Assembly: GCA_001820875.1 (NCBI GenBank) | Contig: MHRF01000007.1 | Span: forward strand, 59,318-118,804 | Direction of reading: 5' to 3' | Source: Candidatus Taylorbacteria bacterium RIFCSPHIGHO2_01_FULL_46_22b | Lineage (GTDB): Bacteria > Patescibacteriota > Minisyncoccia > Phycocordibacterales > DSPV01 | DNA length: 59,487 nt | Shown here: piece by piece, positions 1,609 through 57,279 of the stretch | How the letters are laid out: the number at the start of each line of letters is the position of its first letter | Numbering within the stretch: the first letter of the stretch is position 1 | The notes under the pieces: generated by a model | What the model was told of the DNA's origin: nothing | What the model saw: the letters and a program-made list of their open reading frames with translations, nothing else | The model's database searches: none | Made by a program: the position numbers and the translations under genes

Positions 1609-1611
1609 GGG

Positions 1612-1798
1612 GGAGATGAGGGAAGAGGAATCGAGTCACGCATAATTTTCTGCTGAAAATTTGCGCGACCCCGTCTCGCGCCGCCGCGCTCCGACCGTTC
1701 GATTCCGCCCGCAAGCAAAGCAGCGACCAAAATATCTTGAGTACAGCGATTAGAGATTTGAAGTATCCTTGTGGTGTTTGCTTGCTCCATCTCCACCA
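1612..1798 (+). repeat. segment closed by an ssrA-type acceptor-like helix with encoded ACCA
   Basis: GGAGATG (1612-1618) can pair with CATCTCC (1788-1794), followed by ACCA. An internal GTTCGATTCC lies at 1697-1706 and a long-range stem CAAGCAAA/TTTGCTTG at 1712-1719/1777-1784. A terminator hairpin follows directly. No canonical tRNA or tmRNA fold could be derived. Confidence 0.3.
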
Positions 1799-1800
1799 AA

Positions 1801-1832
1801 CAAAAAAGGCACGCTTGCGCGTGCTCATTTTT
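1801..1832. terminator. bidirectional intrinsic terminator hairpin
   Basis: AAAAAAGGCACGC-TTGC-GCGTGCTCATTTTT, with an A-run upstream and a T-run downstream. It is flanked by the 12-nt inverted repeat CCATCTCCACCA (1787-1798) / TGGTGGAGATGG (1837-1848). Confidence 0.6.
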
Positions 1833-1865
1833 GAACTGGTGGAGATGGGCGGACGCTTGCGAGAC

Positions 1866-1983
1866 GCTTCGCTATCTCACACTTTGGAAACCCTCGGTTT
1901 TCCAACACTCGCCGACTCATTTCCTTCCTCCACGGGAAAGAATTCTCTTTCCCGACCCCTTTCTGTTCGATTCTCGCCATCTC
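1866..1983 (+). repeat. two-hairpin repeat motif, copy A (beside ssrA)
   Basis: Hairpins at 1884-1905 and 1933-1954, then the shared TTTCCCGACCCCTT (1948-1961). It ends in GTTCGATTCTCGCCATCTC (1965-1983), the reverse complement of the ssrA 3' end. Homologous to 6036-6153. Confidence 0.5.
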
Positions 1984-1997
1984 AAAATCTACAAATC

Positions 1998-2023
1998 AAA
2001 ACGCCCACTTTCGTGGGCGTTTT
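1998..2023. terminator. bidirectional intrinsic terminator downstream of ssrA
   Basis: AAAACGCCCAC-TTTC-GTGGGCGTTTT. It lies 9 nt past the ssrA 3' end on the minus strand. Confidence 0.7.
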
Positions 2024-2031
2024 GGAATTTT

Positions 2032-2425
2032 TGGAGATGGCGAGAATCGAACTCGCGTGCAAGAGAAAGAGGTGAATTGTTCTACAACATCTAGTTGGTC
2101 TGATTTTTTCGGCTCATGGGCTCAAGGCCAACAAAAAACACATGAGTATAGTTCTGTTCCCGCCGTGAGGCGATTCGGACGTGTTCCAGAACGGTAACAC
2201 ATCCTATCCCGAGATTATTATGCCCAAGCCAATGTATCGGAAGTCAATTGGTTGAACAGTGTGCGGTTTTTAAGCGTACACAAACGCAAAGTCCTTCGCA
2301 CCGAAGTACGGAGAAACTCGCGCTACTGCATTTTTGGCAGTTATAGTTTCCAGCCGTTTTAGGAGTTACTGGAGCTCCACGTTGCCCAAGACAACTCGTT
2401 TCTTTTGTCTATGCCGATCATCCCC
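2032..2425 (-). ncRNA. ssrA: tmRNA (SsrA), one-piece
   Basis: The minus-strand RNA starts GGGGATGATCGGCATAGAC and ends GCGAGTTCGATTCTCGCCATCTCCA. The 7-bp acceptor GGGGATG/CATCTCC carries the G3:U70 alanine identity pair, and the T-arm is GCGAG-TTCGATT-CTCGC. About 394 nt, adjacent to smpB. CCA is not encoded. Confidence 0.85.
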
Positions 2426-2496
2426 TTATGAAAAGCGACAAGCGATGAGCGAATAGCGATTAGGGTGACACCCCACTTTTCGCTGTTCGCTTTTCG

Positions 2497-2949
2497 CTAC
2501 TCACTATACTTTGTCAAAGTTCTCTGCATGTCGCGTTCGGCATCGCGTTTCTTCAGCGTTTCGCGCTTGTCGAATTTCTTCTTGCCTCGCGCAGTGGCTA
2601 TGGCCACTTTGATCCGCTTCCCCTTATTATACATCGAAACTGCCACAATTGTCAATCTCTTGGTACGCTCAATATCGCCAAGTTCAATAATTTCCTTTTT
2701 GGTAAGCAAGAGTTTTCGGTTTCTATCGGGGAAGTAGTGTTTGGGGGTGTTACTTGGCTGGTAGGGGGAGATGGTGGCGCCAAGCAGATAGGCCTCGCCA
2801 CCGCGTATAGTGACATGTGCACCATCGAGGTGGGCAAAACCGGAGCGGACAGCTCGAACTTCAAATCCAAGCAATTCAATACCCGCCTCGTAGGTATCGA
2901 GTAATTCATAGTTAAAACGGGCTTTTTTGTTGGTGGCGAGTTCTGCCAT
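2497..2949 (-). CDS. smpB: SsrA-binding protein SmpB
   Basis: 150 aa. KKARFNYEL...GIELLGFEV...LLLTKKEI and a basic C-terminal tail are typical of SmpB. Located next to ssrA. Confidence 0.95.
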   Translation of the reverse strand: MAELATNKKARFNYELLDTYEAGIELLGFEVRAVRSGFAHLDGAHVTIRGGEAYLLGATISPYQPSNTPKHYFPDRNRKLLLTKKEIIELGDIERTKRLTIVAVSMYNKGKRIKVAIATARGKKKFDKRETLKKRDAERDMQRTLTKYSE

Positions 2950-3084
2950 AGCGCTATACTAACAAATTTAGTGGTTATTGACGAGAGGTATATTTCCATG
3001 GTACTCTACGAGTCGGCTTTAGTTCTTCGTCACACGAAGAATCTGCCAGAACTCAACCCCAAACCCCAAACTACGGAGGAACCT

Positions 3085-3222
3085 ATGTTAGCAGACCTCG
3101 GCGGCAATATACTTGCCCTGTGTTGCGTGATCGGATTGTTGTATGTTTTGTTTTGGTGCCCCAAATCGGGTCACTCATCGAAGCGCATAGTTCCACCACC
3201 TCCTCACAACGAAGGCCCTTAA
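3085..3222 (+). CDS. small membrane protein (45 aa)
   Basis: The ATG is preceded by GGAGGA at 5-nt spacing. One TM helix (ILALCCVIGLLYVLFW). The longer ORF from 2971 has no RBS. Confidence 0.4.
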   Translation: MLADLGGNILALCCVIGLLYVLFWCPKSGHSSKRIVPPPPHNEGP

Positions 3223-3239
3223 CCGAAGGAGGAGGAGCT

Positions 3240-3548
3240 ATGGAAATAACAGTAACGCTGATAGCAGTTTGCACTGTCGCGCTGGTCTGGGGGGACCAGT
3301 ATCGGAAGCACAAGGCTTTTTTACGAAGATGCCCTCACTGCGATGACCCCAAGGTGATTCGTCGCCCCTACAAGTGGCGCGTACATCCATGGAACACATT
3401 CTACTGTGAGTGTACGATGGGACGTGAGTGCACCAACCCCGAATGTTCCCAGTGTGGTGTGGAGACAGAGGAACCCACTTACACAAAAGTTTTCTCCCCG
3501 TTTGAAATTAAGTGGAGGCAGAAGGTGAAGCGGGAGAAGATCGCTTGA
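3240..3548 (+). CDS. membrane-anchored zinc-ribbon protein (102 aa)
   Basis: The ATG is preceded by GGAGGAGGAG. An N-terminal TM helix is followed by the Cys pairs CPHCDD...CECTMGRECTNPECSQC. A terminator follows. Confidence 0.55.
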   Translation: MEITVTLIAVCTVALVWGDQYRKHKAFLRRCPHCDDPKVIRRPYKWRVHPWNTFYCECTMGRECTNPECSQCGVETEEPTYTKVFSPFEIKWRQKVKREKIA

Positions 3549-3555
3549 TTTGACT

Positions 3556-3592
3556 GGGCGGCGAACGCATGCGTTCGCCGCCCTCTTCTTTT
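3556..3592 (+). terminator. intrinsic terminator
   Basis: GGGCGGCGAACGC-AT-GCGTTCGCCGCCC followed by TCTTCTTTT. Confidence 0.7.
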
Positions 3593-3644
3593 CCCGAAAT
3601 CTTCTATTTCCCTTGTGTTTGTGTATAATACCTCTACTTCACAT

Positions 3645-5528
3645 ATGGAAACTGGTAAACCCAAAAAACCTCGTCTATTGTTCAATATTTCGACTGCGAT
3701 TATTATTTTTTTCGCATTAACGCTTGGGTACTCTCTTTTGACTGAAAATCAAGCACCGGCCAACCAGATTTCATTGTCCGAATTGGTTACTGATATCAAT
3801 GCAGGTAAAGTCTCGGCACTTTCTATCAACGGTGATGCGGTTGAAGTTACCTATACCGGTGAGACACCAGAAGTGAAAGCTGTGCGTAAAGAAGATAGCG
3901 TCTCTATACTTGATTCGCTCAAAAATTTAGGTGTTGATTCGAAAAAACTTTCGGCGATTGGTGTGACAGTCAAGACGCCCTCGGGATTTTCATTCTGGTT
4001 TTTCAATCTCGCACCATTCATTCTTCCGCTCGTGTTCATTCTTGTGTTTATCTGGTTTCTCTCGCGCCAAGTACGCGGGGCGGGGATGCAAGCATTCTCC
4101 TTTGGACAGTCAAAGGCACGTATGATCGCGCCTGATGACAAGCGTCAGCGTGTAACTTTTAAAGATGTTGCAGGTGTCAAAGAAGCAAAAGAAGAATTGA
4201 GCGAGGTGGTTGATTTTCTAAAAAACCCGCGGAAATTTTTTGAAATCGGAGCGCGGATCCCGAAAGGTATGCTTTTGATGGGTGCTCCCGGAACCGGAAA
4301 GACGCTTTTGGCGCGCGCAGTGGCGGGTGAGGCAGGTGTGGCATTTTTCTCAATTTCTGGATCGGAGTTTGTCGAGATGTTTGTGGGTGTTGGTGCAAGT
4401 CGCGTGCGGGATCTTTTTAAACTTGCTAAGCACACGGCGCCAGCGATTATTTTCATTGATGAAATTGATGCGGTAGGGCGCGTGCGAGGAACCGGTGTTG
4501 GTGGAGGAAATGACGAACGTGAGCAGACACTCAACCAAATCTTGGTGGAGATGGATGGATTTGAACCAACCGAGAAGGTAATTGTGATGGCAGCGACGAA
4601 TCGTCCTGATGTGCTTGATCCGGCACTTTTGCGTCCCGGACGTTTTGATCGCCGCGTGATACTCGATTTGCCTGATCGCAATGATCGCGAGGAGATTTTG
4701 AAGTTGCATTCACGCAAGAAACCGTTTGCCGAAGATGTGAATTTGCGGGTGATAGCCGAGCGAACTCCCGGATTCTCTGGCGCCGATCTTTATTCTCTGA
4801 TGAATGAAGGAGCGATTCTTGCTGCACGCGAAAATCGCACCAAAGTGTCGCAATATGATTTGATTCGGGCGATTGAGAAAGTGATGTTGGGTCCTGAACG
4901 CAAGAGCCATTTGTTGTCGGTGAAAGAAAAAGAGATTACCGCGTATCACGAAGCAGGGCACGCACTAGTTGCCTCGGTACTCCCATTTGCCGATCCGGTG
5001 CATAAGATTTCAATTATTTCTCGCGGACGGGCGGGAGGATACACGCTTAAACTTCCGCTTGAAGATCGCCGTCTCCAGTCTCGCAGAGAATTTCTGGATG
5101 ATATTTCTGTTTCGCTTGCCGGTTTTGTTGCGGAGCAAATGATGTTTAATGACGTAACGACTGGTCCCTCAAATGATTTGCAGGTGGCAAGTGCGCTGAC
5201 GCGCGACATGGTGACTAAATATGGCATGTCGGAGAAACTCGGTCCGATTGCCTATGAAGCATCAGCAGGAGTGCTCTACGGTAAACCATTTGCAGAGCGT
5301 GAATATTCCGAACGGATAAGTGCCGAGATTGATTCAGAGGTGTCTCATATTGTCGAAGGTGCTCTGAAGAAAGCGACTGATGTTTTGACAAAGCATAAAA
5401 AAGCACTGCAAGCGATTGCGGGGCGATTGATTGAAGTGGAGACAATCGAGCGCGATGATTTTGAAAAACTATTGATTGCAAACGGTATTGTGCCGAAACG
5501 AAAAGCGGAGATTGAGCACAAGGTGTAG
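3645..5528 (+). CDS. ftsH: ATP-dependent zinc metalloprotease FtsH
   Basis: Walker A GAPGTGKT, Walker B IIFIDEID, the SRH region and the HEAGH zinc motif. Two N-terminal TM helices. The ATG at 3645 was chosen because TGTGTATAAT (extended -10, 3620-3629) lies inside the longer ORF. Confidence 0.95.
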
Positions 5529-5619
5529 TGTTGACGTTTGAAAAGCCTATGTGATAAGGTGTGGATTGGTTTTGTCGTATCTACACTCCAAACTCCAACC
5601 TCAACTCCAGTCAAAACCT

Positions 5620-5916
5620 ATGACGACCCTAACTGTTCCTTGTTCGCAATGGAAGAACCTTTTGGACGAAGCCGCGGATCTGACAGCTGCGGAAGCAGTG
5701 ATACAAAGAGCCCTGCTCGCATCTCGGGAGGAACTGCTCGAGTTCCTTCACGCATTGTTTCTCGAATACGTTGGCCCTGATGGGGCCGGTGGAGGGTGCA
5801 ATGGCACTCGCGACCGCATCCAACAGGTTGCTCGGGTGATTCACCTGAACGACGTTGACCTCGAAGGTCTCGGTCTCAATCCGCACGATTTTCGTGCGAC
5901 GATCTTCTCTCACTGA
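5620..5916 (+). CDS. hypothetical protein, G+C-rich orphan (98 aa)
   Basis: An ORF with helical-looking sequence, followed by a strong terminator. No clear RBS, and the start is uncertain (5551 GTG is the alternative). The line 5761-5820 counts 39/60 G+C. Confidence 0.4.
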   Translation: MTTLTVPCSQWKNLLDEAADLTAAEAVIQRALLASREELLEFLHALFLEYVGPDGAGGGCNGTRDRIQQVARVIHLNDVDLEGLGLNPHDFRATIFSH

Positions 5917-5937
5917 CTTCGAGTTCTTCTCGTGCGC

Positions 5938-5974
5938 GCCGCGTGCCCTTTCAGGGCCGCGGCGTTTGTTTTTA
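5938..5974 (+). terminator. intrinsic terminator
   Basis: CGCCGCGTGCCCT-TTC-AGGGCCGCGGCG followed by TTTGTTTTT. Confidence 0.7.
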
Positions 5975-6035
5975 TGTATCGTCACGAGTCACAAAGTATT
6001 TTGTCCGCTGTCTTGGAGTCTCACTGCTCGCTCGA

Positions 6036-6153
6036 TTAACTCGCTCCGCTTTGAGAACCCACGGTTCTCAACGTCCCTCGAAGACTCGGGACTGCTCTCC
6101 GACACGGGAAACTCCCGTTTCCCGACCCCTTCCCATCGTTCGAGTCCAAGAGG
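6036..6153 (+). repeat. two-hairpin repeat motif, copy B (beside tRNA-Ile)
   Basis: Hairpins at 6051-6071 and 6105-6124, then TTTCCCGACCCCTT (6118-6131). It ends in GTTCGAGTCCAAGAGG (6138-6153), the reverse complement of the tRNA-Ile T-arm. Homologous to 1866-1983. Confidence 0.5.
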
Positions 6154-6190
6154 ACTCACTCGCTTCGCTCATTCCGCCCTCTTGGACTCG
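6138..6190. repeat. hairpin formed by an inverted and a direct partial copy of the tRNA-Ile 3' end
   Basis: CGAGTCCAAGAGG (6141-6153) pairs with CCTCTTGGACTCG (6178-6190). The stretch 6174-6190, CCGCCCTCTTGGACTCG, is identical to 6339-6355 inside the tRNA gene. Confidence 0.6.
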
Positions 6191-6274
6191 CCCGCGACTC
6201 AAAATTCGCTACCGCTCATTTTGGTCTGGGCACCAGCTCGCTTGTTTTTTCTATCGAAAAAACATAGCTCCGCT

Positions 6275-6310
6275 GTTCGAGTCCAGACGCAACTGAAGAA
6301 GTTCAGTTGC
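6275..6310. repeat. degenerate inverted T-arm copy plus hairpin just downstream of tRNA-Ile
   Basis: GTTCGAGTCCAGA (6275-6287), then the hairpin GCAACTGAA-GAAG-TTCAGTTGC (6289-6310). Confidence 0.5.
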
Positions 6311-6336
6311 TTAGGTCTGATACTCGCCGACTCGTA

Positions 6337-6410
6337 TCCGCCCTCTTGGACTCGAACCAAGGACCTACGAGGTATAAGCTCGTTGCTCTAACCAGCTGAG
6401 CTAAGGGCGG
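6337..6410 (-). tRNA. tRNA-Ile, anticodon UAU
   Basis: Folded by hand: acceptor CCGCCCT/AGGGCGG, D-arm GCTC-AGCTGGTTA-GAGC, anticodon arm ACGAG-CTTATAC-CTCGT (anticodon TAT), T-arm CTTGG-TTCGAGT-CCAAG, discriminator A. CCA is not encoded. Confidence 0.8.
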
Positions 6411-27808: not shown

Positions 27809-27892
27809 GAGTATTCATGGCGCGGGGCTTTTCAGGCAACACTAAGCCCCACGCTAGCTTCAGGCCTTGCGGCCCCATACCAGTTTCCCGAT

Positions 27893-27953
27893 ATGGCCCT
27901 TGGAAGAGTCGCTGAACGTGGGGTTCAGTATCTTCCAAGGGTCTTTGGGCCAT
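27893..27953. repeat. 61-bp nested imperfect palindrome upstream of the serine recombinase gene
   Basis: ATGGCCC/GGGCCAT on the outside, CCTTGGAAGA/TCTTCCAAGG in the middle and CTGAAC/GTTCAG inside. Confidence 0.6.
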
Positions 27954-28135
27954 GCCCGCCGGATACATCCAGACAAGTTTAGGCCACTCCTATTCAGTTG
28001 TACTTCATTAGAATATCAAAATTTTCTTCACAAAACAATGATTCCGGAGGGCTGTGTAAGGATAAAAGTTACCAACTTCTTACCTACTCGGGACGCTCTG
28101 GACTCCTGGGGAGGGTTGCGTCATTCCTTAGGTGT

Positions 28136-29467
28136 ATGAAGATAAAAAATCCAACACAAGGGGAAGATTATGAGAAACCAAGGGTCGAGCCAAAGAAAAT
28201 CAGATACTGCCTGTATGCAAGAAAATCGACAGAATCTGAGGAACGCCAAGTCCTCTCAATTGATAGCCAGATAAAGGAGATGCTTCAACTGGCAGATCGA
28301 GAAGGTCTTGAGGTAGTAACAATGAAGCGTGAATCGCACTCGGCCAAGGAGACTGGGCAACGTCCAATTTTTAACGAGATTATCGAAGAACTCAAGCAGG
28401 AGAAATTCAACGCCATACTGACATGGGCACCGGATCGTATCAGCAGAAATGCGGGCGACCTCGGAAAGATCGTGGATTTAATGGATGCAGGGAAACTGCA
28501 CATGATACGAACTTTTGGGCAGACATTCGGAAACAATCCGAATGAGAAATTCCTTCTGATGATTTTAGGTAGCCAAGCAAAACTGGAAAATGACAATAGG
28601 GGAATAAATGTAAAACGAGGATTGCGAACAAGAGTTGAAATGGGACTATGGCCTGGAATGGCACCGCTCGGATATCTCAATCAGAAACTGATGGACCGTA
28701 AATGTCAGATAATTATTGACCCGGAGCGTGCACCGATTATCAAGAAAATGTTTGAGAAAGTTGCGTACGAAGGATGGAGTGGAAGAAAAGTATACAACTG
28801 GCTCAGATTTGATCTGAACTTCTACACCCGAGGAAATAAACCTCTGACTCTATCGGGTGTGTACCGTATATTTGATATGCCTATCTACTACGGACCATTC
28901 GAGTATCCAAGAAAATCTGATAATTGGTATCAAGGGACACATGAACCCATCATTACCAAAGAACTTTACGAAAAAGCACAGGAGCATCTCAAGAGAGATA
29001 AGATAGTGCGAGAAAATAGAGAGTTTGCATTCACTAAATTATTTACCTGCGGTATGTGCCAGTCAGGGATAACAGCACAAGAAAAATACAAAGAGCTTAA
29101 AGACGGCACAACCGCGAAATATGTTTACTACTCCTGCTCAAAAGCGAAAGATAGAAATTGTCCGAACAAATATATTCGGGAGGAAGAACTAATCGAGGAA
29201 TTGTTCAAAGTAATAGACAAGGTAGACATCAACGAGCTTGGAATGAGAATGAAGCTTGAAGAAGAAATAAAAAGATTTAACAGACTTCAAAGACTGTCGA
29301 CCAAGGGGACACCTAAATACAGCATCAACGAAGATGACGTAAACACGAGAGAGTACGCCAAGTATGTGTTGCGCGAGGGCACACCACTTGAAAAGCGAGA
29401 ATTGATGGGACACTTACGATCGAGGCTTGTCCTGAACGACAAAAAGATTACTTTGTTGAAGGAATAA
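28136..29467 (+). CDS. large serine recombinase
   Basis: Resolvase-type N-terminus (CLYARKSTESEERQ...DRISRN), a recombinase domain and the zinc ribbon CGMC...YYSCS. A C-terminal coiled coil follows. The start was set at MKIKNPT. Confidence 0.9.
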   Translation: MKIKNPTQGEDYEKPRVEPKKIRYCLYARKSTESEERQVLSIDSQIKEMLQLADREGLEVVTMKRESHSAKETGQRPIFNEIIEELKQEKFNAILTWAPDRISRNAGDLGKIVDLMDAGKLHMIRTFGQTFGNNPNEKFLLMILGSQAKLENDNRGINVKRGLRTRVEMGLWPGMAPLGYLNQKLMDRKCQIIIDPERAPIIKKMFEKVAYEGWSGRKVYNWLRFDLNFYTRGNKPLTLSGVYRIFDMPIYYGPFEYPRKSDNWYQGTHEPIITKELYEKAQEHLKRDKIVRENREFAFTKLFTCGMCQSGITAQEKYKELKDGTTAKYVYYSCSKAKDRNCPNKYIREEELIEELFKVIDKVDINELGMRMKLEEEIKRFNRLQRLSTKGTPKYSINEDDVNTREYAKYVLREGTPLEKRELMGHLRSRLVLNDKKITLLKE

Positions 29468-30667: not shown

Positions 30668-30740
30668 TTACAACTGTAGCTTTGTGGGTCACAGCTCGGC
30701 ATCGAGCATATGGGACAACAAAACTAACAGGTTGTCAATG

Positions 30741-30827
30741 CGGAGAGGGTGGGATTCGAACCCACGAGAGGATTGCTCCCCTAACACCTTAGCACGGTGC
30801 CGCTTTCGGCCACTCAGCCACCTCTCC
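30741..30827 (-). tRNA. tRNA-Ser, anticodon GCU
   Basis: Folded by hand: acceptor GGAGAGG/CCTCTCC, a long variable arm, anticodon loop GTGCTAA, T-arm GTGGG-TTCGAAT-CCCAC, discriminator G. 87 nt. Confidence 0.9.
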
Positions 30828-51774: not shown

Positions 51775-51847
51775 GACGGAGTAGCTCAGTTGGTAGAGCA
51801 CGGGACTCATAAGCCCGGGGTCGTGGGTTCAATCCCCACCTCCGTCA
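51775..51847 (+). tRNA. tRNA with CAU anticodon (elongator Met type; Ile2 not excluded)
   Basis: Folded by hand: acceptor GACGGAG/CTCCGTC with G1:C72 paired, D-arm GCTC-AGTTGGTA-GAGC, anticodon loop CTCATAA, T-arm GTGGG-TTCAATC-CCCAC, discriminator A. Confidence 0.85.
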
Positions 51848-51885
51848 CACGAAGCGAGTAGGAAGGAAGCTTTGCCCTTCGGCAA
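51826..51885 (+). repeat. 60-nt direct repeat, copy 1 (tRNA 3' end plus 38 nt of trailer)
   Basis: GGTTCAATCCCCACCTCCGTCACACGAAGCGAGTAGGAAGGAAGCTTTGCCCTTCGGCAA, identical to 51971-52030. Confidence 0.9.
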
Positions 51886-51970
51886 AGCGCGGAGGGGATT
51901 GAAAAGCTTCTCCCATATTTTTGAGGCATTCTGATGACGAAAAAATGGGAAAGCTGTACTGAACCGGTAC

Positions 51971-52030
51971 GGTTCAATCCCCACCTCCGTCACACGAAGC
52001 GAGTAGGAAGGAAGCTTTGCCCTTCGGCAA
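51971..52030 (+). repeat. 60-nt direct repeat, copy 2
   Basis: Identical to 51826-51885 and 145 nt downstream of it. No 5' tRNA half is present. Confidence 0.9.
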
Positions 52031-57011: not shown

Positions 57012-57085
57012 GCGGTCGTAGCTCAGCTGGTTAGAGCGCTCCCCTGTCACGGGAGAGGTCGCCGGTTCAAATCCGGTCGACCGCG
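57012..57085 (+). tRNA. tRNA-Asp, anticodon GUC
   Basis: Folded by hand: acceptor GCGGTCG/CGACCGC, anticodon loop CTGTCAC, T-arm GCCGG-TTCAAAT-CCGGT, discriminator G. Confidence 0.9.
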
Positions 57086-57120
57086 CAAGCAAATCGCCGA
57101 AAGGCGATTTTTGCTTGCGC
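57083..57120 (+). terminator. long terminator hairpin overlapping the tRNA-Asp 3' end (repeat copy 1)
   Basis: GCGCAAGCAAATCGCC-GAAA-GGCGATTTTTGCTTGCGC. Its first 33 nt recur at 58012-58044. Confidence 0.65.
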
Positions 57121-57163
57121 GGTTGGAGCGAGCAAACTGCTTTGCTCGCGTCCGGATTTGAAC
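57118..57163. repeat. inverted copy of the tRNA-Asp T-arm/acceptor, split by an inserted hairpin
   Basis: CGCGGT, then the insert TGGAGCGAGCAAACTGCTTTGCTCGCGT, then CCGGATTTGAAC. The reverse complement of the tRNA 3' end is CGCGGTCGACCGGATTTGAAC. Confidence 0.6.
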
Positions 57164-57260
57164 AAGCGGAGACATGTCGCTTGCGACAGGCGAGCTCGGG
57201 GAGGAAGTTCTTAGTAAAATTGAGTTTGCAGAACGAAAATTTTACTTAGAAACTTGACCC

Positions 57261-57279
57261 TCAAATCCGGTCGACCGCG
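57261..57279 (+). repeat. 19-nt direct copy of the tRNA-Asp 3' end
   Basis: TCAAATCCGGTCGACCGCG, identical to 57067-57085. Confidence 0.85.

Follow-up and report, generated by a model that had tools for sequence, protein, structure and literature searches.

Islands driven by an integrase are classically recognised by directly repeated tRNA 3′ ends, by native ends that have been displaced, and by accretion in tandem. The CTX phage (IMEX) has no recombinase of its own and uses the host XerCD on a folded single-stranded hairpin that mimics the target; an inverted copy stays by one junction and the target is regenerated, so that arrays can form. In the IS200/IS605 family, the chemistry is that of single-stranded DNA, and the cleavage sites are recognised by pairing with a short internal guide.

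Here, we describe a motif, called E, and the short units built around it in the genome of Candidatus Taylorbacteria bacterium RIFCSPHIGHO2_01_FULL_46_22b (G000; 921 kb in 13 contigs, 98.7% complete). The window, that is, the whole stretch of DNA analysed, comprises 59,487 nucleotides (C7:59318–118804). Like integrase islands and prophages, E units appear to be inserted in the 3′ part of RNA genes, to supply a new 3′ end while the native end is displaced, and to form tandem arrays. As in CTX, inverted target-like sequences around a spacer can fold as a target mimic. With IS200/IS605 elements, as well as PATE and REPIN elements (the latter with RAYT), they share small size, asymmetric ends, and subterminal hairpins, and Y1 genes are present in the genome. 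The original prediction had offered two readings of a two-hairpin motif in this window: either it is a functional RNA, or it belongs to a mobile element that adapts its end to the tRNA target. The mobile element fits well, and the interpretation as a whole is borne out in part; displaced target repeats, targets other than tRNA, and the same architecture at 20 of 48 RNA genes lay beyond its scope.

Results

Anatomy of the two loci in the window

Copy A of E lies between lexA (1042–1608, +) and ssrA, with smpB beyond ssrA, and copy B between ftsH (3615–5528, +) and tRNA-Ile(TAT), with recG beyond the tRNA gene (Table 1). On the motif strand, a unit reads X, linker, E, arm, spacer (often a terminator), and intact gene terminus. 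X is a direct repeat of the target end to the left of the linker, whereas the intact copy, T, adjoins the gene body. Every sequence claim made earlier for these loci holds in the letters of the window. The two-hairpin motif is present at both places, with hairpins 1 and 2 at the positions listed in Table 1, and the two copies have in common the 14-mer TTTCCCGACCCCTT (1948–1961 and 6118–6131). Allowing up to two mismatches, this 14-mer has four matches against 0.35 expected, a number reached by none of 100 shuffles. The 3′ extensions of the two copies, GTTCGATTCTCGCCATCTC in arm A and GTTCGAGTCCAAGAGG in arm B, are exact inverted copies of the 3′ ends of ssrA and tRNA-Ile, respectively.

Three details of the original prediction were in need of refinement. 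The boundaries that it drew around the units cover the core and arm but omit the left part, which consists of the linker and the displaced repeat. Arm B does match tRNA-Ile; however, its nearest partner is a 3′ fragment at 6173–6190, and the gene itself is 188 nt away. This fragment is identical to 6337–6354 at 18 of 18 positions and pairs with arm B across a 24-nt loop. Lastly, the 12-mer said to occur at both loci, ACTCGCCGACTC, is exact, but its second occurrence is not part of copy B and belongs to the spacer of an adjacent unit with another core. It is thus common to the middle of copy A (1907–1918) and the spacer hairpin of the type 2 unit at tRNA-Ile (about 6317–6336; 12-mer at 6322–6333), and its sharing by these two units is far above chance.

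Table 1 Features of copies A and B of E and of the adjoining units (positions in the window)
Feature	Position	Strand	Basis
Older unit with type 2 core, outside copy A	1611–1836	.	
X_A, displaced antisense tmRNA 3′ end including CCA	1837–1853	+	Repeat analysis
Linker of copy A, with conserved left-end motif GACGCTTCGCTATC	1854–1882	+	
Hairpin 1 of copy A	1883–1905	+	
Middle segment of copy A: 12-mer (1907–1918) and pyrimidine tract TTCCTTCCTCCA	1906–1932	+	
Hairpin 2 of copy A	1933–1954	+	
Conserved tail ACCCCTTTCT of copy A, end of core	1955–1964	+	
Arm A, 19-nt sense copy of tmRNA T-loop, T-stem 3′ strand, and acceptor 3′ strand; reverse complement of the ssrA 3′ end, 2034–2052	1965–1983	+	
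Spacer S_A, with terminator-like hairpin at 1998–2023	1984–2031	.	
ssrA (tmRNA) gene; 3′ end 2034–2052 is the partner of arm A	2029–2425	−	
X_B, degenerate (78%) antisense tRNA-Ile 3′ end	6004–6021	+	Repeat analysis
Linker of copy B	6022–6050	+	
Core of copy B: hairpin 1 (6051–6071), variable middle hairpin (6073–6092), hairpin 2 (6105–6124), tail (6125–6137)	6051–6137	+	
Arm B, 16-nt sense copy of tRNA-Ile T-loop, T-stem 3′ strand, and start of the acceptor strand	6138–6153	+	
Spacer of copy B (6154–6172) and its own tRNA-Ile 3′ fragment (6173–6190)	6154–6190	.	
Later-arriving type 2 unit between copy B and the tRNA gene; arm at about 6265–6288, second 12-mer at 6322–6333	6191–6336	.	
tRNA-Ile(TAT) gene	6337–6410	−	

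E is a dispersed family with a covarying core

The motif had been counted as present twice. In fact, E has 14 copies in G000, all of them intergenic; 13 were found by BLAST and pattern searches, and the 14th by a covariance model built from 13 copies. A model-based search for homologues, as proposed in the original prediction, found between 1 and 14 copies per genome in 28 of the 61 related genomes searched. Of 150 further genomes taken from across the phylum, 11 gave matches. In addition, 81 metagenome stretches contain an 18-mer of the core without a mismatch. Relatives of the SmpB protein bear the names Kaiserbacteria, Paceibacteria, and Parcubacteria, which places the genome in the Patescibacteria. 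A pair without homologues, left by a recent segmental duplication, is clearly not what these searches returned, and segmental duplication is ruled out by a family of 14 copies with unrelated flanks. The reading of E as a dispersed and probably horizontally spread family fits the data well.

No E copy was found at the ssrA/smpB loci of 27 other Patescibacteria, and one exact-pattern scan and one blastn of viral contigs and phage records gave no matches. A scan of the window against Rfam 15 at the gathering threshold gave no match at copies A and B, and a scan by E-value of five other E copies and of the type 3 unit after tRNA-Met (see below) gave chance-level matches only; no known RNA family was found. 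Full-text searching of the literature turned up no paper describing such elements. A protein-coding reading is ruled out, as the length shifts in the middle region are not multiples of three and the stem changes are compensatory.

Across 46 aligned copies, 94.5% of the cells in paired columns are paired and 13 of 18 pairs show double changes, which none of 500 shuffles match; this alignment had been fitted to the model, and the genomes, being related, do not count as independent samples. The compensatory change with retained structure, noted in two copies, is confirmed in both hairpins across the 46. Covariation alone does not distinguish RNA from single-stranded DNA. Hairpin 1 is located about 19 nt from the left boundary and hairpin 2 about 10 to 12 nt before the arm, and between them is a third, variable hairpin, in the place of which copy A has its middle segment. 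The signals for the strand diverge. The mismatches in paired cells comprise 17 A–C versus 8 G–T, favouring the minus strand, whereas plus-strand folds are steadier than shuffled sequence (z of −2.9 and −3.2), favouring the plus strand. No promoter-like site was found for E.

Within G000, the cores are alike, with 97.6% identity over 84 nt between copy B and the copy at hppA, and they resemble one another more than they resemble the cores at orthologous sites in sister genomes. This likeness would require turnover or gene conversion. A long form of E, specific to the genus, was observed at L013, L041, and four G000 positions (C4:91874, C5:5626, C13:132935, and C13:204791). It has a second small module on both flanks, consisting of TTCAT, a GC-rich hairpin, and AATTC, and each flanking module is enclosed by a locus-specific inverted repeat of its own.

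The arm copies the end of the adjoining gene

Similarity among the copies ends right after the conserved tail CCGACCCC(C)TTCCC, and the arm starts at this fixed place after the core. It is 10 to 23 nt long and different at every locus, and the end of the gene terminus is its reverse complement. In 27 of 46 copies, the arm has its reverse complement 3 to 293 nt downstream, with a score of at least 10; it beats all 20 shuffles in 28 copies and fails to do so in 18. An independent metagenome sample gave a similar picture, with an arm score of at least 10 in 24 of 37 evaluable copies and a tRNA on the opposite strand within 300 nt in 20 of the 37. Among the 46 aligned copies, 18 adjoin an oppositely oriented tRNA or tmRNA gene.

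The targets are the 3′ ends of tRNA and tmRNA genes, the 3′ ends of hppA (H+-pyrophosphatase) and rpsI, and the 5′ end of murD, a murD-like gene. At the orthologous hppA sites of G000, G001, and G005, the arm tracks its target with two compensatory double changes. The suggestion that the end of the motif adapts to its tRNA target fits the data in a wider form, in that the 3′ arm matches whichever gene terminus adjoins it.

Displaced gene ends resemble foreign alleles

The copy of the terminus within a unit comprises the terminal 11 to 91 nt of the target gene, and the direct repeats flanking the unit are 11 to 91 nt long; the left flanks have no common motif. Where the target is a protein gene, most differences between X and T fall on third codon positions. 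The synonymous and nonsynonymous codon differences at hppA are 13 and 2 in G000, 19 and 0 in G001, and 9 and 1 in G005, and those at the murD-like sites are 7 and 6, 6 and 3, and 7 and 4. Moreover, the distance between X and T in one genome (17 to 24 of 88 nt) equals that between the orthologues of different species. Since a decaying duplicate would gather replacement changes, X and T look like alleles that both evolved as working ends.

Similar observations were made at RNA genes. Read from the coordinates, the repeat stops within 3 nt of the tRNA end at 9 of 12 tRNA sites, with unlike trailers beyond it, and at the remaining three it extends 10 to 37 nt past that end. At ssrA, X_A has the CCA and a terminator (1808–1825), and its T-stem version is that of the tmRNA genes of G002 and G004, not that of G000; the working end has a different T-stem version and a different terminator (1998–2023). 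At hppA, G000, G001, and G005 have a filled site, G003 a decayed one, and G004 a plain terminator. In the filled genomes, the distal part of the working hppA end belongs to one allele class, whereas the X copies of G000 and G005 cluster with G002 and G004, which lack the element.

From these comparisons, we conclude that the spacer and terminus probably come in with the unit. Together with the tandem stacking described below, the relation of X to T suggests that the integrative units would have been imported, each with a gene end to replace the resident one. Simple duplication of the target site, whether through staggered cuts or through target-primed reverse transcription, is unlikely in view of the synonymous differences and of repeats that mostly end at the end of the RNA gene. 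Over the 39 to 40 nt nearest the junction, X matches T exactly in both G000 and G005, although the two genomes differ from each other there; simple import does not predict such a match. About one-third of the copies have no convincing displaced repeat within 220 nt, mostly copies of the long form with its extra hairpin modules. No pair of empty and filled sites at strain-level identity was seen, and the boundaries and direction of insertion are for this reason drawn from comparisons at about 75% identity.

At the 5′ end of murD (L061 in G005 and L015 in G001), the displaced 5′ copy retains its start codon. In G005, the frame of this copy crosses E and enters the intact gene with no stop codon; in G001, a TAA closes the frame 2 nt ahead of the gene's ATG.

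Units stack in tandem, and unrelated cores share the architecture

Further units adjoin E at both loci. The older unit outside copy A has an interrupted arm (1697–1711 and 1785–1798), its own terminator (1808–1825), and a degenerate third copy of the tmRNA end near 1611–1638, and the ssrA genes of sister genomes have one or two type 2 units on their 3′ side. In the stack at tRNA-Ile, copy B pairs with its own fragment, and the type 2 unit next to the gene was apparently inserted later. Homologues of this unit are found 3′ of the same tRNA-Ile in G002 and G004, where the gene is reversed relative to ftsH and recG. Tandems of E copies whose sequences are unlike were observed too (L036).

The architecture extends well beyond E. 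In G000, the last 26 nt of 20 of the 48 tRNA and tmRNA genes recur in part, as an inverted copy of 11 nt or more, no farther than 450 nt downstream. A direct copy of 11 nt or more, usually farther out, is present at 20 of the 48 as well. At least three unrelated cores share this arrangement, and among RNA genes E itself occurs only at ssrA and tRNA-Ile. Two more cases are present in the window, after tRNA-Met(CAT) (51775–51848) and tRNA-Asp(GTC) (57012–57086).

In these last two units (51849–51993 and 57087–57279), a spacer hairpin is followed by an inverted copy of the T-loop and T-stem (51894–51903 and 57152–57163), a structured core with no relation to E, and the tRNA 3′ end repeated in direct orientation (51971–51993 and 57261–57279). 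A core termed type 3 was observed 3′ of at least 10 tRNA genes of G000, for example, at C1:100097–100171, C13:172074–172146, and C13:174407–174489. Its layout is arm, GCCCGATTGAG, hairpin, CAATCGGGG, TACT, and GAAnnnGTAnnnTTC, which runs into the displaced tRNA end, and its GTA-loop hairpin is made from the T-stem and the start of the T-loop of the target. This core is predicted to fold as a three-way junction that has the insertion point at its branch, and Rfam gave no match for it.

Units contain no genes, and no partner enzyme was found

A unit measures about 150 to 300 nt, and only about 100 to 250 nt separate the gene end from the displaced repeat. No gene or cargo remnant was found in this interval in the 46 aligned copies, the 37 metagenome copies, or the units at about 20 RNA genes of G000; no ORF within the units encodes a recombinase, and G000 has no split E copies with cargo. 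The genome encodes two tyrosine recombinases, three large serine recombinases, and two intact Y1_Tnp genes (C13:10277–10954 and C12:11297–11986), yet no recombinase, reverse transcriptase, or Y1 gene lies beside any of the 14 copies. Genes for Y1 HUH transposases are present in 22 of 28 E-positive versus 18 of 33 E-negative genomes, and reverse transcriptase genes in 15 of 28 versus 12 of 33; G002, which is 99% complete, has E and neither of these genes. The co-occurrence of E with Y1 or reverse transcriptase genes is therefore weak. Searches of G000 for the IS110 DEDD recombinase (PF01548) and for TnpB (PF07282) gave no match.

Four metagenome DNA runs, searched as contigs, contained no excision joint or circle; these contigs break at repeats. 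Joints that skip from 1912 to 6098 were considered as signs of excision and ruled out, as they derive from other E copies with different middles. A link to diversity-generating retroelements (DGRs) was also ruled out, as the differences between X and T are not adenine-specific and the reverse transcriptases belong to ordinary DGRs elsewhere.

G000 has three such DGRs, at C7:124147–127183 (about 5 to 8 kb past the end of the window), C4:61199–63961, and C1:69263–71091. Their template and variable repeats form pairs of 110 to 151 nt with mismatches almost only at template adenines, and one DGR target protein has a C-terminal Lcl_C domain. Elsewhere in the window, a LOOT RNA (RF03000, 79.5 bits; 27862–27985, −) was identified 13 nt upstream of a large serine recombinase (27998–29467, +; 489 aa) with Resolvase, Recombinase, and Zn_ribbon_recom domains. 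With tRNA-Ser(GCT) nearby (30740–30827), this region may be an integrated element.

Discussion

We hold with moderate confidence that E is the conserved structured core of a gene-less miniature integrative element that resides at the ends of conserved genes. This reading builds on the observed anatomy of the units, the family and its covariation, the target-matched arms, the repeats of foreign allele type, and the tandem stacking. A unit, made up of linker, E, arm, spacer, and a copy of the target end, would lie inside the end of a conserved gene, where it supplies the working terminus, and the resident terminus would be pushed outward as the direct repeat X. Such units would pass from one related lineage to another and accumulate as tandem arrays at a single site. 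We infer that a unit may move as a single-stranded DNA or RNA intermediate, in which arm, spacer, and terminus could form a hairpin with a stem that reproduces the target duplex; or else the arm itself may pair with the target. Either pairing would direct a trans-acting enzyme, not encoded by the unit, to recombine at the gene end.

The integrative element has to be weighed against three other explanations. According to one of them, which we regard as unlikely, E is a structured non-coding RNA (an sRNA or cis element) that serves the host: the scaffold would bind a protein, the arm would pair with the end of the neighbouring transcript, for example, in processing, stability, or termination, and recombination near gene ends would have left the target repeats as by-products. 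The covariation of both hairpins and of arm with target across species would suit such an RNA, as would the terminator-like hairpin 3′ of arm A on the motif strand, the plus-strand fold scores, and the occupation of the hppA site since before three species split. However, because the arm is a sense copy opposite the tRNA strand, it can pair with the RNA of the gene only if the minus strand of E is transcribed, and on the choice of strand the A–C excess and the folds conflict. Neither a promoter-like site nor an Rfam match was found for it, and a host RNA leaves unexplained the foreign-type synonymous divergence of the displaced gene ends, the tandem stacks of unlike cores, and the patchy spread over 28 of 61 genomes.

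The tRNA 3′-end repeats, displaced native ends, and tandem accretion, together with the large serine and tyrosine recombinases of G000, would also be expected if the units were remnants of larger prophages or islands that had their own recombinase and were almost wholly deleted, E being an arm of the attachment site. We consider this improbable, as it requires many repeated precise deletions, the short intervals hold no cargo remnant, split copies are absent from G000, and E is absent from the viral contigs and phage records scanned. More improbable still is a passive palindromic repeat of the REP or MITE type, moved by a Y1 transposase (IS200-like or RAYT-like) or by recombination, with ordinary terminator stems for arms and no role in targeting. 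The two intact Y1_Tnp genes, the hairpins near both ends of the core, the intergenic position of every G000 copy, and several short-loop arms that could act as terminators are compatible with it. Against it stand the identity of one partner of the arm, which is the RNA gene itself at ssrA, at tRNA-Ile, and in 20 of 37 metagenome copies, and the start of the arm at a fixed place relative to the core; moreover, no Y1 gene adjoins a copy, Y1 co-occurrence is weak, and there are neither terminal inverted repeats nor short target duplications of fixed length.

A bolder form of the integrative-element reading, which we put forward as a tentative possibility, is that the units are self-contained, programmable integration devices without a protein, in which a single-stranded core and a target-complementary arm recruit host machinery to an arbitrary gene terminus. 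As the spare terminus differs at synonymous sites, the host gene would survive. It is just as tentatively that we extend this to several unrelated cores that would follow the same principle, jointly at about half of the tRNA genes of a minimal genome.

If the integrative element is real, Patescibacteria genomes of less than 1 Mb would hold dozens of gene-less integrative units at the ends of their most conserved genes, each with a built-in target-matching sequence. They would represent a new route by which gene ends, including the 3′ ends of tRNA and tmRNA genes, are exchanged between lineages, as well as a candidate natural system of nucleic acid–directed integration. Whatever the mechanism, the units break assemblies at tRNA loci and give rise to pseudo-fragments of tRNA and protein genes, which annotation pipelines may misread. 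The covariance model of E is a ready marker for surveys.

Comparing E units with the known systems, each likeness comes with clear differences. The direct repeat at the far boundary and the tandem accretion of integrase islands are both present. Unlike these islands, however, E units carry no integrase, other recombinase, or any gene in their short length, have an inverted copy of the target end by a structured core, and also use the termini of protein genes, including a 5′ end. The folding known from CTX has its counterpart in the inverted repeats formed by arm, spacer, and terminus in 27 of 46 aligned and 24 of 37 metagenome copies. Unlike in CTX, the targets are many unrelated gene termini and not dif, the sequence of the stem is locus-specific, and the units have no genes or replication functions.

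Subterminal hairpins at both ends agree with IS200/IS605 elements. In contrast to these, the arm of E is 10 to 23 nt and not 4, the direct target repeats are long where IS200/IS605 elements insert 3′ of a fixed short target without duplicating it, and there is no conserved target tetranucleotide; a Y1 gene is found neither in nor beside the units, and its co-occurrence with E is far from strict. MITEs differ as well, given that the two ends of E are unlike each other and the repeat length varies from 11 to 91 nt. Lastly, neither an IS110 nor a TnpB gene was found in G000, E units do not contain or adjoin a protein gene, and E does not belong with the bridge RNA of IS110 or the omega RNA of TnpB in this genome. 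What E units do share with the bridge RNA and with the omega RNAs of TnpB and IscB is a structured scaffold joined to a locus-specific, target-matching stretch, and, unlike in those guide-bearing RNAs, this stretch pairs with a copy of the target inside its own unit.
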